Part shown: positions 5,934 to 12,742 of the stretch, piece after piece
How positions within the stretch are numbered: the first letter of the stretch is position 1
Layout of the letters: each line of letters opens with the position of its first letter
Assembly (NCBI RefSeq): GCF_044324875.1
Contig: NZ_CP172189.1
Length of the DNA stretch: 14,825 nucleotides
Strand: one strand, 5' to 3'
DNA from: Escherichia coli
Lineage (GTDB): Bacteria; Pseudomonadota; Gammaproteobacteria; Enterobacterales; Enterobacteriaceae
Translations under genes and position numbers: made by a program
Notes under the pieces: generated by a model
Told to the model about the DNA's origin: nothing
Databases searched by the model: none
What the model saw: the letters and a program-made list of their open reading frames with translations, nothing else

Positions 5934-7487
5934 TTACCATCCCAGCGACGGGCCATCCAGTGTCCGTTCCTGTATTTCCAGATGGCGCTCACGCTCTAGG
6001 AATAGCTCATGTTCACGTTCCTGTATCAGTAGTTCGTCCCTTATCTCCTGCTCTCGCTGTATAACTGGCTCAAGTGTTCTGTCTGCTCGCTCAAGTGCTG
6101 CACCTGCTGACTCAACTGCATGACCCGCTCGTTCAGCATCGCGTTGTCCCGTTGCGTAAGCGAAAACATCTTCTGCAATTCCACGAAGGCGCTCTCCCAT
6201 TCGTTCAGCCGCTGCATATAGTCCTGTTGCAGCTGCTCTAAGGCGTTCAGCAAATGTGTTTCCAGCTCTGTCACTCTGTGTCACTCCTTCAGATGTACCC
6301 ACTCTTTCCCCTGAAAGGGAATCACCTCTGCTGATTTCCCGTACGGAAGGACCAGAAATTTCCTGTTCCCGTCCTGCACGAACTCCACGCCCCATGTCTT
6401 CGCGTTCAGTTTCTGCAATGTCTCTTCCTGCTTCCTGATATCTTCCAGGTTCGCCTGTATCCTCCCGCCAAGATACCAGAGCGTCCCGCCACTCGCGGTA
6501 AACAGGAGAAAGACTATCCCCAGTAACATCATGCCCGTATTCCCTGCCAGCTTTAACACGTCCTTCCTGTGCTGCCTCATCGCCTCTTTCACCCCTTCCC
6601 GGTGTTTCTCCAGCGATTCCTCTGTCGAGGCTGTGAACAGGGCTATAGCGTCTCTGATTTTCGTCTCGTTTGATGTCACAGCCTCGCTTACAGATTCGCC
6701 GAGCCTCCTGAACTCGTTGTTCAGCACTTTCTCTGTAGATTCGGCTCTCTCTTTCAGCTTTTTCTCGAACTCCGCGCCCGTCTGTAAAAGATTGCTCATA
6801 AAACGCTCCTTTCAGCCTGATATTCTTCCCGCCGTTCGGGTCTGCAATGCTGATGCTGCTTCGCGTCACCCTGACCACTTCAAGCCCCGCCTCTGTGAGC
6901 GCCTGAATCACATCCTGACGGCCTTTTATCTCCCCTACATGATAAAGAGCGTCTATCCCGCGTGTGACGCTCTCAGCAAGCGCCTGTTTCGTTTCCGGCA
7001 GGTTATCAGAGAGAGTCAGTATCCGGCGGTTCTCCGGGGCGTTGGGGTCATGCAGCCCGTAATGGTGATTCACCAGCGTCTGCCAGGCATCAATTCTCGG
7101 CCTGTCTGCCCGGTCGTAGTACGGCTGGAGACGTTTTCCGGTCTGTAGCTCCATGTTCGGAATGACAAAATTCAGCTCAAGCCGTCCCTTGTCCTGGTGC
7201 TCCACCCACAGGATGCTGTACTGATTCTTTTCGAGACCTGGCATCAGTACGCGCTCAAAGCTCGCCATCACTTTTTCACGTCCTCCCGGCGGCAGCTCCT
7301 TCTCCGCGAACGACAGAACGCCTGACGTGTATTTCTTCGCAAATGGCGTGGCATCGATGAGTTCCCGGACTTCTTCCGGATTACCCTGAAGCACCGTTGC
7401 GCCTTCGCGGTTACGCTCCCTCCCCAGCAGGTAATCAACCGGACCACTGCCACCACCTTTTCCCCTGGCATGAAATTTAACTATCAT
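5934..7487 (-). CDS. mbeA: ColE1-type mobilisation relaxase MbeA (MOB-HEN family), 517 aa
   Basis: MIVKFHARGKGGGSGPVDYLLGRERNREGATVLQGNPEEVRELIDA... is the MbeA N-terminal relaxase domain; the C-terminal half is Arg/Glu-rich. The ORF-track start (7535) is a 16-codon upstream extension; the true ATG is at 7487 and overlaps the mbeC stop. Confidence 0.9.
   Translation of the reverse strand: MIVKFHARGKGGGSGPVDYLLGRERNREGATVLQGNPEEVRELIDATPFAKKYTSGVLSFAEKELPPGGREKVMASFERVLMPGLEKNQYSILWVEHQDKGRLELNFVIPNMELQTGKRLQPYYDRADRPRIDAWQTLVNHHYGLHDPNAPENRRILTLSDNLPETKQALAESVTRGIDALYHVGEIKGRQDVIQALTEAGLEVVRVTRSSISIADPNGGKNIRLKGAFYEQSFTDGRGVREKAERESRIYRESAEQRVQEARRICKRGCDIKRDENQRRYSPVHSLDRGIAGETPGRGERGDEAAQEGRVKAGREYGHDVTGDSLSPVYREWRDALVSWREDTGEPGRYQEAGRDIAETEREDMGRGVRAGREQEISGPSVREISRGDSLSGERVGTSEGVTQSDRAGNTFAERLRAAATGLYAAAERMGERLRGIAEDVFAYATGQRDAERAGHAVESAGAALERADRTLEPVIQREQEIRDELLIQEREHELFLERERHLEIQERTLDGPSLGW
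6041..6274 (-). CDS. mbeD: MbeD, 77-aa mobilisation protein nested inside mbeA in another frame; GTG start
   Basis: MTELETHLLNALEQLQQDYMQRLNEWESAF...; GAAGGAG ribosome-binding site 9 nt upstream of GTG at 6274; same arrangement as the ColE1 mob region. Confidence 0.7.
   Translation of the reverse strand: MTELETHLLNALEQLQQDYMQRLNEWESAFVELQKMFSLTQRDNAMLNERVMQLSQQVQHLSEQTEHLSQLYSESRR
6281..6799 (-). CDS. mbeB: MbeB, 172-aa mobilisation protein with one predicted TM segment, nested inside mbeA in another frame
   Basis: MSNLLQTGAEFEKKLKERAESTEK...MMLLGIVFLLFTASGGTLWYLGG...; AAGGAG ribosome-binding site 8 nt upstream of ATG at 6799. Confidence 0.75.
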   Translation of the reverse strand: MSNLLQTGAEFEKKLKERAESTEKVLNNEFRRLGESVSEAVTSNETKIRDAIALFTASTEESLEKHREGVKEAMRQHRKDVLKLAGNTGMMLLGIVFLLFTASGGTLWYLGGRIQANLEDIRKQEETLQKLNAKTWGVEFVQDGNRKFLVLPYGKSAEVIPFQGKEWVHLKE

Positions 7488-7824
7488 CCCGCGCCCCCTG
7501 TTCCCTGACGGCCAGACGCAGCCGGCGCAGCTCATCCCCGATGGCCATCAGTGCGGCCACCACCTGAACCCGATCACCGGAAGACCACTGCCCGCTGTTC
7601 ACCTTCCTCGCGGTCTGATTCAGGTTATTCCCGATGGCGGCCAGCTGACGCAGTAACGGCGGTGCCAGTGTCGGCAGCTTCCCGGAACGGGCAACCGGCT
7701 CCCCCAGGCAGACCCGCCGCATCCATACCGCCAGTTGTTTACCCTCACAGCGTTCCAGTAACCGGGCATGTTCATCATCAGTAACCCGTATCGTGAGCAT
7801 CCTCTCGCGTTTCATCGGTATCAT
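7477..7824 (-). CDS. mbeC: MbeC/MobC-type relaxosome accessory protein (ribbon-helix-helix)
   Basis: ...MLTIRVTDDEHARLLERCEGKQLAVWMRRVCLGEPVARSGKLPT...; stop overlaps the mbeA start. Start codon uncertain (ATG at 7833, 7824, 7815 or 7800); copy C lacks the 7833 start in frame. Confidence 0.85.
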   Translation of the reverse strand: MIPMKRERMLTIRVTDDEHARLLERCEGKQLAVWMRRVCLGEPVARSGKLPTLAPPLLRQLAAIGNNLNQTARKVNSGQWSSGDRVQVVAALMAIGDELRRLRLAVREQGARDDS

Positions 7825-7864
7825 TACCCCCATGAACAGAAATCCCCCTTACACGGAGGCATCA

Positions 7865-8056
7865 GTGACTAAACAGGAAAAAACCGCCCTTAACATGGCC
7901 CGCTTCATCAGAGGCCAGACATTAACGCTGCTGGAGAAACTCAACGAACTGGACGTGGATGAACAGGCAGATATCTGTGAATCGCTTCACGACCACGCCG
8001 ATGAGCTTTACCGCAGCTGCCTCGCACGTTTCGGGGATGACGGTGAAAACCTCTGA
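7865..8056 (+). CDS. rop: Rop/Rom, 63-aa RNA I-RNA II pairing modulator (four-helix bundle); GTG start
   Basis: V/MTKQEKTALNMARFIRGQTLTLLEKLNELDVDEQADICESLHDHADELYRSCLARFGDDGENL; GGAGG ribosome-binding site at 7855-7859. The ORF-track entry 7793-8056 is an upstream in-frame extension. Confidence 0.9.
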   Translation: MTKQEKTALNMARFIRGQTLTLLEKLNELDVDEQADICESLHDHADELYRSCLARFGDDGENL

Positions 8057-8164
8057 CACATGCAGCTCCCGGAGACGGACACAGCTTGTCTGTGAGCGGA
8101 TGCCGGGAGCAGACAAGCCCGTCAGGGCGCGTCAGCAGGTGTTAGCGGGTGTCGGGGCGCAGCC

Positions 8165-8260
8165 CTGACCCAGTCACGTAGCGATAGCGGAGTGTATACT
8201 AGCTTAACTATGCGGCATCAGTGCGGATTGTATGAAAAGTGCACCATAGCCGATGTGAAA
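8165..8260. other. oriT/bom (basis of mobility) region of module B with the nic-site motif
   Basis: cagtcacgtagcgatagcggagtgtatactAgcttaactatgcggc matches the pBR322/ColE1 bom nic region, between rop and the origin. Confidence 0.7.
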
Positions 8261-8439
8261 TGCCGCACAGATGCGTAAGGAGAAAATGCAACTTCCGACA
8301 CTCTTCCGCTTCCTCGCTCACTGACTCGCTACGCTCGGTCGTTCGGCTGCGGCGAGCGGTACCGGCGCACTCAAAGGCGGTAATACGGTTATCCACAGAA
8401 TCAGGGGAGAAGGCCGGAAAGAACATGTGAGCAAAAAGG

Positions 8440-9030
8440 CAAAGGCCAACGAAAGGCCGCGCCGCTGGCGTTTTTCCATAGGCTCCGCCCCCCTGACGAG
8501 CATCACAAAAATCGACGCTCAAGTCAGAGGTGGCGAAACCCGACAGGACTATAAAGATACCAGGCGTTTCCCCCTGGAAGCTCCCTCGTGCGCTCTCCTG
8601 TTCCGACCCTGCCGCTTACCGGATACCTGTCCGCCTTTCTCCCTTCGGGAAGCGTGGCGCTTTCTCATAGCTCACGCTGTTGGTATCTCGGCTTGGTGTA
8701 GGTCGTTCGCTCCAAGCTGGGCTGTGTGCACGAACCCCCCGTTCAGCCCGACCGCTGCGCCTTATCCGGTAACTATCGTCTTGAGTCCAACCCGGTAAGG
8801 CACGCCTTAACGCCACTGGCAGCAGCCACTGGTAACCGGATTAGCAGAGCGATGATGGCACAAACGGTGCTACAGAGTTCTTGAAGTAGTGGCCCGACTA
8901 CGGCTACACTGAAAGGACAGTATTTGGTATCTGCGCTCTGCTGAAGCCAGTTACCTTGGTTAAGCAGTTCCCCAACTGACCTAACCTTCGATCAAACCGC
9001 CTCCCCAGGCGGTTTTTTCGTTTACAGGCA
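8440..9030 (-). other. ColE1-type origin of replication, copy B (RNA II primer region, transcribed on the minus strand)
   Basis: Near-identity to the pMB1/pBR322 ori body (ggcgtttttccataggctccgcccccctgacgagcatcacaaaaatcgacgctcaagtcagaggtggcgaaacccgacaggactataaagataccaggcg...). Confidence 0.9.
8917..9024 (+). ncRNA. RNA I of origin copy B, with stem-loops 2 and 3 different from copy A
   Basis: Starts acagtatttggtatctgcgctctgctgaagccagttacctt as in copy A, then diverges (ggttaagcagttccccaactgacctaaccttcgatcaaaccgcctccccaggcggttttttcgttt). RNA II promoter follows at 9026-9075 on the minus strand. Confidence 0.75.
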
Positions 9031-9080
9031 GCAGATTACGCGCAGAAAAAAAGGATCTCAAGAAGATCCTTTTAACTTTT

Positions 9081-9221
9081 CTACTGAACCGCGATCCCCG
9101 TCAGTTTAGAAGAGGAGGATGGTGCGACAGTCCCTCCCTGAACATCGCGGATGTAATTAGCTTGGCAGCCTGATAGCAAAGCCATCAAGACAAGCATCCC
9201 TCCTGATAATATCATTTTCAT
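9081..9221 (-). CDS. Colicin lysis (release) lipoprotein, 46 aa, of the second colicin locus
   Basis: Hand-translated [46 protein letters not shown]; lipobox LLSGC; GAGG ribosome-binding site upstream. Mature part almost identical to Kil of module A. Confidence 0.8.
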
Positions 9222-9340
9222 ATATTCCCTCATTAACACATACCCCTAATCTTAGGATGACCATTACTTGTACAGCATGATATGCTTATACACATCTACA
9301 ACTAAATTAATAATAATGAAAAGCTTGGAGAGTTATACCA

Positions 9341-9865
9341 ATGAGAAAAGAGCACACTGACAATAAAGATTTAAACAGGACGCTTTTTTTGATTACTTTT
9401 GCAGGCATAACACCATTAATCATTATTTTTATAACTTATACATCAAACCCCAAGTTCTATTTAATTAGCATCATTTTTGATAACACACAAAATATACCTT
9501 CAATAATTTCCGCATACAATCCTGTGATGACAAAGGTGATGGATATCTACGGGAAAAGCGCTCCCTTACTGGCACTTATTGCTTTTACTCTCCAACTCCG
9601 CGACAGAAAGCTAGAGACAATAGCCAACAGAGAAAAACTAATTACTGCCAGCATATTTAGTCCATTTTTTTATGCTTTTTATGCATATTTCTTTCTGTGG
9701 AATAATTTCGAATTAACCACTGCAGGTAGGACTGTCAGATGGATGTCCGATAATGATTTTACTTTGTTTATTTTTTACGCCTGCCTCTATTTTTGCTCTT
9801 TCTTTATGACTTATGCTCTGTGTTATATTCCGGTTGTGTCATATAAACTCTGGAAAGAAAGGTAG
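9341..9865 (+). CDS. Immunity protein for an A-type pore-forming colicin (colicin A/B/N/U/Y class), 174 aa, four predicted TM helices
   Basis: 174-aa aromatic-rich protein with four hydrophobic segments, convergent with a colicin pore-domain remnant and next to a lysis gene; GGAGA ribosome-binding site at 9325-9329. Which colicin it serves cannot be decided from memory. Confidence 0.75.
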   Translation: MRKEHTDNKDLNRTLFLITFAGITPLIIIFITYTSNPKFYLISIIFDNTQNIPSIISAYNPVMTKVMDIYGKSAPLLALIAFTLQLRDRKLETIANREKLITASIFSPFFYAFYAYFFLWNNFELTTAGRTVRWMSDNDFTLFIFYACLYFCSFFMTYALCYIPVVSYKLWKER

Positions 9866-9882
9866 TCTTCTTGACTACCTTT
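9860..9882. terminator. Bidirectional terminator-like hairpin between the convergent immunity and colicin genes
   Basis: AGGTAGTC-ttctt-GACTACCT followed by TTT on the plus strand and by TTT/CTTT on the minus strand. Confidence 0.5.
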
Positions 9883-9892
9883 CGACTCTAGG

Positions 9893-10103
9893 TTAATACG
9901 CAGGGCGAATAATTTCGTTATTTAACCTGTCTATAAATTTGTCATCAATCAATGCTCCAATAAAACTGGCTATAATAATACCGATAATCCCTACGACTGC
10001 AGCTGATGCCCCCACAGCAAGCAGGTAAGCTCCAAGGGTGGCAGAAAAAATAGCAAGAGCCACAGCAGAAGCAATACCACTGACAACCCAGGACTCGACC
10101 TCC
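9893..10103 (-). pseudogene. 3' remnant (~69 codons) of a pore-forming colicin gene: hydrophobic hairpin and C-terminus of the channel domain; the 5' part is replaced by an IS21-family element
   Basis: ...EVESWVVSGIASAVALAIFSATLGAYLLAVGASAAVVGIIGIIIASFIGALIDDKFIDRLNNEIIRPAY resembles the C-terminal hairpin and end of colicin channel domains (compare the colicin E1 C-terminus in this window). Upstream codons of the track ORF (MMPNCDRRWMPNHDRF...) come from IS terminal repeats. Confidence 0.6.
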
Positions 10104-10123
10104 TGCAAAATGGCATCTGAATC

Positions 10124-10232
10124 GATCGCAGTTTGGCATTCGAATCGATCATGATTTGGCATCCATCTCCGATCACAGTTTGGCATCACAATCGATCACG
10201 ATTTGGCATGCTTCCGATCATTGATTGGCATC
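10124..10232 (+). repeat. Five direct repeats (~23-bp period) of CGATCANNRTTTGGCAT at the IS left end; likely transposase binding sites
   Basis: Copies at 10124-10140, 10147-10163, 10171-10187, 10194-10210 and 10216-10232, with related copies in inverted orientation at the right end (12680-12730). Confidence 0.7.
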
Positions 10233-10305
10233 CTGCCAGTCACTCCGGGAATTAACTCTTTTCACCACAGTCTCCATTGCCGTGTTTAAACCAGTGGAGA
10301 CGTCA

Positions 10306-11871
10306 ATGTCCAGAAAGAGAAAATCCAGGAGCACTATGGAAACCTGTTTTAAGATCCTTCAGCTCAAGTTCGACAAGAAGCTGACTAACCGTTGTATCGG
10401 ACTGACGTTACACATCAGCGCCTCAACCGTTTTTGAGGTTCTTGCCCGCTTCAAAGCCTCTTCTCTGTCATGGCCATTACCTGCTGATATATCCCATGAC
10501 ACGCTGGAGAAACTCATTTTTCCGCCCAAAGACACCTTTGCATCAGAGCTTGTAATGCCTGACATGTTGTACTTCGATACGGAAATGAGAAAACCAGGTG
10601 TGACGCGGCAACTGTTGTGGATGGAATACAAGGCACAGGCGGGTAACAAAGCGATGGGATACTCGCACTTCTGCCGTTGCTACCGGGAGTGGAAAAAAAC
10701 GCGACGTCTCTCCATGCGCCAGGAGCATCGTGCCGGCGAAAAGCTTTTTATCGACTTCTGTGGTCCTACGGTTCCTGTTATTAATCCGGACACCGGTGAG
10801 ATACGCCGCGTGGCAATCTTCGTGGCCGTAATGGGGGCGTCCAACTATACCTACGTTGAAGCGTGCGAAGGTCAGGACATGATGTCATGGTTAAATGCCC
10901 ACAGCCGTTGCCTGACCTTCCTGGGCGGCGTACCGAAGCTGCTCATCCCCGATAACCTCAGAAGCGCAGTGAAAAAGGCCGATCGATATGAGCCTGTCAT
11001 CAACGACAGTTATCAGGCACTGGCTGAGCACTATGGCACGGTTATCATCCCGGCCCGACCACGCAAACCTAAAGATAAACCAAAAGCAGAAAACGGCGTC
11101 CTCATCGTTGAACGATGGCTTCTTGCCCGCATCCGTAATGAAACCTTCCACACGCTCAGGGCGCTGAATGCGCGCCTTAGGGAGTTACTGACAGACATGA
11201 ATAACCGGCCAATGAAGGGGTACGGCAATCAAACCCGTGCAGAACGCTTCCGCATACTGGATGCGCCAGCACTCTCTCCGCTGCCTCTGGCACCTTATGA
11301 ATACACGGAATACAAAGCTGTGAAGGTTGGCCCTGACTACCACGTTGAATATGCCCGTCACTGGTACTCCGTTCCACACGAACTGGTCGGTCAGCGTCTG
11401 TCACTGAAGGCGGGGCAGTCGGTGGTACAGCTCTGGCACAAGGGGCAGTGTGTGGCGCAACATCCGCGCAGCACACATGAATATAAACACACAACCAATC
11501 CGCTTCACATGCCAGAGCGCCACCGGCAGCACGGGACATGGACACCGGAACGCCTGATCGAGCAGGGAAAACGTACGGGCCCGTCCACAGGCCGGGTGGT
11601 TGAATCCATGCTGAAGGCAAAACCCCATCCGGAACTGGCTTATCGTGCAGTTCTGGGGCTGCTGGCACTTCAGAAAAAATACGGCCCGGAACGGCTGGAA
11701 AAGGCCTGTTACGTTGCCCTGCACTATAACGCCCCTGACAGACGCTTTATCGACAATCTGCTGCGTCACCATCGGGAGAACCTGGAGCTTCCATTATCCC
11801 GCCAGGGCGAACAACATCCGGCATATGCTTCAGAGCATGAAAACCTGCGTGGTCCGGGCTACTACCACTGA
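10306..11871 (+). CDS. istA: IS21-family transposase IstA, 521 aa from ATG at 10306
   Basis: N-terminal HTH region, DDE-type catalytic core, typical IstA length; GGAGA ribosome-binding site 7 nt upstream. The track start at 10225 is a TTG inside the terminal repeats and is unlikely to be real. Confidence 0.85.
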   Translation: MSRKRKSRSTMETCFKILQLKFDKKLTNRCIGLTLHISASTVFEVLARFKASSLSWPLPADISHDTLEKLIFPPKDTFASELVMPDMLYFDTEMRKPGVTRQLLWMEYKAQAGNKAMGYSHFCRCYREWKKTRRLSMRQEHRAGEKLFIDFCGPTVPVINPDTGEIRRVAIFVAVMGASNYTYVEACEGQDMMSWLNAHSRCLTFLGGVPKLLIPDNLRSAVKKADRYEPVINDSYQALAEHYGTVIIPARPRKPKDKPKAENGVLIVERWLLARIRNETFHTLRALNARLRELLTDMNNRPMKGYGNQTRAERFRILDAPALSPLPLAPYEYTEYKAVKVGPDYHVEYARHWYSVPHELVGQRLSLKAGQSVVQLWHKGQCVAQHPRSTHEYKHTTNPLHMPERHRQHGTWTPERLIEQGKRTGPSTGRVVESMLKAKPHPELAYRAVLGLLALQKKYGPERLEKACYVALHYNAPDRRFIDNLLRHHRENLELPLSRQGEQHPAYASEHENLRGPGYYH

Positions 11872-11886
11872 CAGAAGGAACAACAG

Positions 11887-12643
11887 TATGAGTGATAACC
11901 TGTTAAACAAACTGACCCAACTGAAACTCCCGGCGATGGCCGGGAGCCTGATACGGCAGCGGGAAACGCCTCAGACCTACGACGAACTGTCGTTCGAGGA
12001 AAGGCTGACGCTGCTGGTTGATGACGAGCTTCTGAGCAGGGAAAACAGCCGTGTGGCACGGTTGAGAAAAAATGCCGGCCTGAAATACCAGGCAACACCG
12101 GAAGGGCTGCGCTATCCGGCCTCAAGAGGTCTGCGGGCTGAACAGATGAGAGAACTGCTGAACGGCCACTACATAACCCACAGGAAAAACCTGCTGATAA
12201 CCGGTCCGACAGGATGTGGCAAGAGCTGGATAGCCAATGCGCTGGGCGAACAGGCATGTCGACAGAAACACAGCGTCCGGTACTGTAGAACCGGGCGATT
12301 ACTGGAACAACTGGCTCAGGGACGTGTTGATGGCAGCTGGCTGAAATATCTGAAACAGTTGCAAAAAATACAGGTTCTAATCCTGGACGATCTGGGGCTG
12401 GAACAGTTAAGTAACGCCCAGTGTAATGACCTTCTGGAGCTCATAGAGGATCGTTACGGACAAAGCAGCACGATAGTGGTAAGCCAGTTCCCGGTAGATA
12501 AATGGCATGGTCTGATGGAGAACCCAACAACAGCAGATGCCATCCTGGACAGACTGGTACATAACTCACACCGAGTGGTCCTTCAGGGAGAGTCACTGAG
12601 GAAAAATCCCCCGGTAGTGGAAAGCAGCGAAAAAACGCGTTAA
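11887..12643 (+). CDS. istB: IS21-family ATP-binding helper IstB (AAA+), 251 aa
   Basis: MSDNLLNKLTQLKLPAMAGSL..., Walker A GPTGCGKS, Walker B ILILDDLG; GAAGGAA ribosome-binding site. The track ORF 11645-12643 is an upstream extension overlapping istA. Confidence 0.9.
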
Positions 12644-12742
12644 AAAGCGGTAGAAAAAGTTAAGTTCCCGGTTGATCGAATGGATGCGAATCGCTGATCG
12701 GACTTCGATGCCAATCCGTGATCGAATAGAGCGGAATACGCA

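Follow-up and report, generated by a model that had tools for sequence, protein, structure and literature searches.

The window, by which we mean the whole stretch of 14,825 nucleotides of Escherichia coli DNA analyzed here, carries two origins of transfer (oriT) whose nick cores, TATACTAGCTTA at 8195–8206 and TATACTGGCTTA at 14110–14121 (both on the (+) strand), differ by a single base. The question raised by this locus is what that base means for mobilization from the first of the two origins, and whether the relaxase has changed with it. Small mobilizable plasmids of the ColE1 family are among the commonest in Enterobacteriaceae, and most cloning-vector backbones derive from them; knowing which bases of the nick core tolerate change would help to predict mobilizability from sequence. 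We found that the change at 8201 is genuine and that it is a rare but ordinary polymorphism of a well-known element, with an effect that, as far as sequence comparison can tell, is probably modest.

Two ColE1-type oriT copies differ at one base of the nick core

Homology, position and neighboring genes identify the stretch at 8195–8206 as a ColE1-type (MOB-HEN/MOBP5) nick region, part of the origin of transfer referred to here as oriT_B (Table 1). Specifically, the region 5′ of the nick is homologous to that of ColE1-type origins, oriT_B lies in the rom–oriV interval beside the divergently transcribed mbeC–mbeA operon, and a MOB-HEN relaxase (MbeA) and a ribbon-helix-helix (RHH) accessory protein (MbeC) are encoded in cis. 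The order around the origin is mbeA and mbeC on the (−) strand, rom on the (+) strand, oriT and RNAI (8919–9021). The mbeA_B ORF extends to 7535, with the start taken at the Met that is residue 17 of the ORF, and its product scored 869.9 bits against NF047848 (cut-off of 500) and matched the Pfam Relaxase family. The catalytic Tyr19 and the HQD...E.N motif are present in the MbeA sequence.

Table 1. Features of the window that bear on the two origins of transfer
Feature	Coordinates	Strand	Remarks
Junction 1, sole cer (XerCD) site in the window	3466..3495	−	switch from ColE1 to ColY sequence
mbeA_B, sole full-length MOB-HEN relaxase gene in the window	5934..7487	−	517 aa
mbeC_B, ribbon-helix-helix nicking accessory protein	7477..7800	−	Pfam MobC and NikA-like; ORF to 7833
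rom/rop_B, between mbeC and oriT_B	7865..8056	+	63-aa ORF; annotated Rop in relatives
Conserved oriT_B block, presumed relaxosome recognition region	8147..8206	+	−54 to +5 relative to 8201
oriT_B nick core, TATACTAG/CTTA	8195..8206	+	variant A at 8201, equivalent of ColE1 G1467
Junction 2, IS21-family element (ISSso4-like; istA, istB)	~10104..12742	+	joins truncated cya to truncated ColE1 mbeA
mbeA_C, ColE1 relaxase gene cut by IS	12743..13403	−	NF047848 profile positions 1–225 of 497
mbeC_C	13393..13716	−	protein sequence identical to that of mbeC_B
oriT_C, canonical ColE1 oriT	14062..14121	+	core TATACTGG/CTTA at 14110–14121

Matches to TATACTRGCTTA in the window numbered two, both of them the oriT cores, against 0.07 expected by chance, and the spacing between the cores (5915 bp) is the register of the duplicated ColE1-type backbone. 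Over the 60 bp ending in GCTTA, the copies differ solely at 8201 (A), the counterpart of 14116 (G); the nearest further differences lie at 8141 upstream and 8209 downstream, and divergence rises farther downstream (8241–8254 and 8291–8303). The first-pass annotation had described two ColE1/pBR322-type oriT (bom) copies separated by a G→A change between their cores, and both descriptions proved correct, with the change falling inside the octamer CTGGCTTA. Its remark that the copies are otherwise near-identical holds for the nick-proximal part (59/60 bases). One difference per 12 bases is unsurprising for copies that are 3–6% diverged; the near-invariance of the 8201-equivalent base across the family is what makes the change notable.

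The cleavage octamer of oriT_C is exactly CTGGCTTA, whereas that of oriT_B is CTAGCTTA, which agrees at 7/8 bases, and the nick contexts of the two alleles read ...GTGTATACTGG/CTTAAC versus ...GTGTATACTAG/CTTAAC. Natural members of the family also carry the octamers CTGGCTAA, CTGACTTA and CTGGCTTC, suggesting that exact identity to CTGGCTTA is not strictly required. On the oriT_C side, the window is 99–100% identical per block to a plasmid of ColE1 proper (L009).

The variant base lies two positions 5′ of the presumed nick

The octamer CTGGCTTA is the ColE1 sequence that contains the relaxase cleavage site (PMC5703827), and in the literature searched this octamer is what is given, without the scissile bond being named. 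We found that the octamer runs from 1469 down to 1462 on the minus strand of the ColE1 reference, NC_001371 (C1469-T-G-G1466-C1465-T-T-A1462). Varsaki et al. in 2003 reportedly placed the ColE1 cut at 5′-(1469)CTGG/CTTA(1462)-3′, and the agreement of the reference coordinates with this cut puts the nick between 8202 and 8203 on the (+) strand. From the reported cut and the coordinate check together, we infer that the scissile bond is G8202/C8203 and that 8201 is nick −2, i.e., the second base 5′ of the nick rather than nick −1. The first-pass annotation had placed the changed base immediately 5′ of the nick and had named a nick not adjacent to this base as grounds for giving the idea up; with the nick between 8202 and 8203, strict adjacency fails by one position, yet the base is still inside the core.

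With this geometry, MbeA, aided by MbeC, would cut the (+) strand between G8202 and C8203, and the cut strand would leave 5′ to 3′ toward oriV, with the mbe genes reaching the recipient last. Entry of the mobilization genes last is the usual arrangement.

The window is a fusion of ColE1 and a colicin Y plasmid

The duplicated backbone aligns 6827–9170 with 12743–14825 continuing into 1–262 (94% identity over 2353 bp); since this alignment crosses the ends of the window, with 5915 + 8910 = 14825, the window is one circular molecule. Parents were assigned by block-wise comparison of the window with fetched plasmids, and by this comparison it is a complete circle of 14,825 bp in which canonical ColE1 (G oriT) is fused with a colicin Y plasmid (A oriT). 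The ColE1 part (12743–14825 plus 1–3465) shows one difference from L009 in 12743–14825 and none in the rest, and carries colicin E1, imm, exc1, exc2, the truncated mbeA, mbeC, rom, oriT_C and oriV. The colicin Y part (~3500–10103) is near-identical to pB771_9494 (L195), with 3460–8100 being 100% identical by blocks to another plasmid (L002), and carries the full mbe operon, rom, oriT_B, oriV_B, crl, cui and a C-terminal cya stub. A three-parent mosaic was replaced by these two parents once L195 was compared, and no record in the plasmid and E. coli collections covered ≥80% of the window.

The fusion thus has a single intact relaxase gene, encodes the same MbeC protein twice, and contains two RNAI genes as well as two oriTs in direct orientation, and its single cer site suggests that XerCD would be unable to resolve it. 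In the ColE1 part, mbeA_C is cut after ~220 MbeA residues, with the catalytic N-terminal motifs kept and the C-terminal half lost. Its reading frame (12660–13451 on the (−) strand) covers the region of Tyr19 and the HEN motif followed by ~22 IS-derived codons. This relaxase-domain fragment, were it expressed, might still be able to bind or nick oriT, in competition with full-length MbeA_B.

Several other features of the fusion were recorded. The RNAI genes at 9–113 (+) and 8919–9021 (+) both scored above the Rfam threshold, and the RNAI/RNAII-promoter regions (3–262 versus 8913–9170) are only 84% identical, so the two replicons may differ in incompatibility specificity. The colicin Y immunity gene cui (9341–9865 on the (+) strand; Pfam Colicin_im, 133 bits) is intact, the colicin Y gene (9893–10103 on the (−) strand) is a C-terminal stub cut by the IS, and colicin E1 (696–2264) and its immunity protein (358–699) are still encoded. 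As read from these genes, the plasmid would give colicin Y immunity without colicin Y production.

The nick −2 base is almost invariant across the family

Alleles were counted by comparing 41-mers centered on the core with 72,556 plasmid records using megablast, whose 28-nt exact word means that the central 15 bases are exact in every match. The reference core TATACTGG/CTTA was found in 1149 plasmid records and the 8201 allele (first G→A) in 23, while neither the first G→C nor the first G→T was found in any of the 72,556 records. At the other core positions, the second G→A (CTGACTTA) occurred in 7 plasmid records and the nick +1 C→T (CTGGTTTA) in 2, and the nick −3 T→C and nick −4 C→T in none of the same 72,556.

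With N at the variant position, a metagenome scan found 145 copies on 120 contigs (109 haplotypes), and every one of them carries G. Another scan, of genomes and anchored on the upstream block only, returned 68 copies (from Pantoea, Erwinia, Dickeya, Yersinia, Kluyvera, Enterobacter and others), among which TGTATACTGG was present in 64/68 and CTAG in 0/68, with variation starting at nick +3. The octamer CTGGCTAA was common in the Pectobacterium, Pantoea, Serratia and Klebsiella copies. Across the 109 metagenome haplotypes, the sequence is near-invariant from −54 and highly variable downstream of GCTTA, as would be expected for recognition 5′ of the nick. By these counts, the nick −2 position is strongly constrained and purine-only, with A the commonest departure. 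Almost no variation is seen at the first G of CTGG/CTTA, yet G→A recurs at ~2% without relaxase change.

Also seen was a circular mini-plasmid of ~1.55 kb with a ColE1-type nick core and no mob genes, whose 158-aa HTH protein gave a sub-threshold RepL match (records L136, L143, L148, L157, L158, L161, L164–L167, L178–L180 and L192–L194). At 88–100% identity it appeared on short contigs of Micromonospora, Streptococcus, Clostridium, Rhizobium, Mycobacterium and Acinetobacter assemblies, and its presence in such unrelated taxa is probably contamination by, or carry-over of, an enterobacterial plasmid.

The A allele recurs on several backbones and, among ColY relatives, is private to this lineage

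The A allele occurs on at least 7 backbones, and the flanking haplotype differs for each. Plasmids that carry it are ColS4 (L001), mouse 6-kb plasmids (L003), a Salmonella restriction-modification plasmid (L004), a ColE1-proper plasmid (L005), ColK (L006) and mob-less wzz(fepE) plasmids (L007 and L008). In L005, the A is the sole difference from ColE1 over 341 bp. The L001 record (NZ_CP133874.1; 14,409 bp) consists of two perfect head-to-tail copies of a 7.2-kb colicin S4 plasmid and has the A allele in both oriTs.

By comparison, all five ColY relatives compared (98–99.8% identity to the window) carry G. Relative to both L002 and L195, the window has four private substitutions in 6.6 kb (7956, 8141, 8201 and 8409), all within 454 bp (p ~0.001 for such clustering by chance), and a single private site of the ColE1 half, 14385, lies in the equivalent neighborhood. 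All five of these substitutions fall in rom-3′/oriT/ori-leader neighborhoods. Placed among these relatives, the A at 8201 is a recent lineage-private G→A transition on a ColY-type oriT, and its source is a new mutation or else a very short patch whose donor lies outside the sample.

The second of these sources, a short recombination patch from another A-allele ColE1-family plasmid, concerns only the origin of the base and is compatible with its being a neutral or mild polymorphism; we consider it unlikely, although it draws on several observations. ColE1-family backbones are mosaics, as illustrated by mbeA/B/D (~6200–6800), where L195 is 94–99% identical to the window and L002 100%, with both near-identical to it on either side; the ColS4 plasmid L001 has the ColY sequence over 8142–8238 save for the A; and the private changes are clustered. 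However, the neighboring private 8141G and 8409G occur in no sampled A-allele plasmid and the ColY-specific markers at 8240–8303 are retained. The flanking markers do not support import from a ColS4-like A-allele plasmid, and a patch would have to be shorter than ~97 bp, which still fits, or to come from an unsampled ColY-like donor.

Two further sources were rejected. Conversion between the oriT copies is ruled out by the other copy, which has the ancestral base at 5/5 private sites. A Dcm/Vsr hotspot fails by inspection, as the bottom strand reads GCCAGT, not CCWGG, and VSP repair would if anything favor CTAG→CCAG, i.e., reversion.

The A is probably neutral to mildly deleterious

Our preferred reading is that the A at 8201 represents a natural allele, rare but recurring on ColE1-family backbones that are unrelated, without a change in relaxase or accessory protein, and that it would be a neutral to mildly deleterious polymorphism (probability of roughly 0.65, with "mild" being a judgment). 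Nicking by the R388 relaxase TrwC requires the 6 nt 5′ of the nick, and changes there nearly abolish initiation and cut termination just 5- to 9-fold (PMC3264647). By analogy, the A would at most lower the initiation of nicking at oriT_B, and termination would probably be less affected; the size of the functional effect is something that we infer. Given the strong conservation of the position, less efficient mobilization from oriT_B would be plausible, and the plasmid as a whole should stay mobilizable because oriT_C is canonical and MbeA_B and MbeC are intact.

The same analogy makes a large effect possible. At the extreme, the A would largely inactivate oriT_B and leave initiation to oriT_C only, the allele persisting because the loss of one oriT, or of mobilization, is not quickly selected against. 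The near-invariance of the G, in place of which C or T never occurs, and the A lineages, which look like recent tips a single base away from G relatives (L005 versus L009; the window versus its ColY relatives), would also fit a strongly defective oriT kept by vertical inheritance, and changes just 5′ of the nick nearly abolish TrwC mobilization, albeit in a different MOB family (PMC3264647). The distribution of the allele points the other way: A is the commonest core variant (23 records versus 0–7 for the other transitions tested), it is found on five backbones with full-length mbeA, and it is found in mob-less ~3.1–3.2-kb plasmids (3081–3175 bp) from poultry, pigs and soil in several studies, a wide recovery that suggests continued horizontal spread. 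We favor the neutral-to-mild polymorphism over such a null allele, which strikes us as distinctly unlikely.

A third possibility is that CTAG at nick −2 is a recurrently selected functional variant rather than a drifting defect. Such a variant could tune down nicking by the relaxosome or alter which co-resident ColE1-family relaxases use the origin, and selection would explain its standing as the commonest variant, its presence on at least 7 backbones and the cluster of private substitutions around the oriT/ori leader; we nonetheless hold it to be very unlikely. A sequencing or consensus error in the window record is also very unlikely. The A is private to the window among ColY-type relatives and has three other private changes nearby, but the same allele stands in 23 independent plasmid records, references match ~10 kb of the window at 100% identity, which implies a very low error rate, and mis-polishing would have imported the base of the other copy, which is ancestral at 5/5 private sites.

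A structural role was considered and rejected for a hairpin between ACTGG (8198–8202) and CCAGT (8170–8174), in which the A would give an A·C mismatch: the fold does not reach significance (z = −1.4), the partner base is invariant, and compensating changes are absent from the A-allele plasmids.

No relaxase or accessory protein change tracks the allele

MbeA_B is identical at 533/533 residues to the MbeA of L002 and differs at one of the first 241 residues (Q207L) from that of L195, both of which come from G-allele plasmids. Within the near-isogenic pair of L005 (A) and L009 (G), the first 241 MbeA residues, i.e., the relaxase domain, are identical, and MbeC is the same in copies B and C and in L001, L004, L005 and L009, which together represent both alleles. 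Across the plasmids compared, no MbeA or MbeC residue co-varied with the oriT allele. Because no protein change tracks the allele, we reject the suggestion of the first-pass annotation that the oriT of the first module (oriT_B) co-evolved with its relaxase, an idea also contradicted by the closest ColY relatives, all of which carry G. The related proposal of a specificity switch, in which the A co-evolved with the relaxase or an accessory protein, has a precedent in the TraI proteins of F and R100 and could appeal to the five of the first 241 residues at which MbeA_B differs from ColE1 MbeA, but these same five residues are common to L002 and L195, both with G, and together with the identities above this leaves the proposal with almost no credence.

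Comparison with known systems

In the TraI–oriT pairs of F and R100, single base differences near the nick can define relaxase specificity, and the oriT base changes are matched by relaxase residue changes. At oriT_B, the base change has no matching relaxase residue change. The R388 TrwC/oriT system (MOBF) offers a likeness of another kind, in that initiation depends critically on the bases just 5′ of the nick, and termination less so (PMC3264647); TrwC belongs to a relaxase family other than that of MbeA, and the likeness to MbeA is an analogy. Where one molecule holds two oriT copies, a relaxase can recombine them, an ability that is not general among relaxases (PMC3264647). With one A oriT and one G oriT served by a single relaxase, the fusion would be a convenient natural substrate for measuring the effect of the base.

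Also close to the locus are the colicin Y plasmids (pCol-Let, NC_002487; pB771_9494, NZ_CP120560), with which the window shares the oriT-oriV-crl-cui arrangement, pB771_9494 showing only 5 differences in 7700–10107. All those sampled have G at the 8201 equivalent, and the window differs from them further in that its colicin Y gene is truncated by the IS21-family element and the plasmid is fused to ColE1.

A further close counterpart is the oriT/bom of ColE1 (NC_001371; octamer at 1469–1462, MbeA/MbeC relaxosome). oriT_B matches it at 59/60 bases of the conserved block, lies likewise between rom and oriV with the adjoining mbeC–mbeA operon transcribed away from it, and is accompanied by the same relaxase and accessory protein families, and oriT_C is the ColE1 sequence itself. 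What sets oriT_B apart from ColE1 is the A in place of G at nick −2 and the ColY-type flanks 3′ of the nick.
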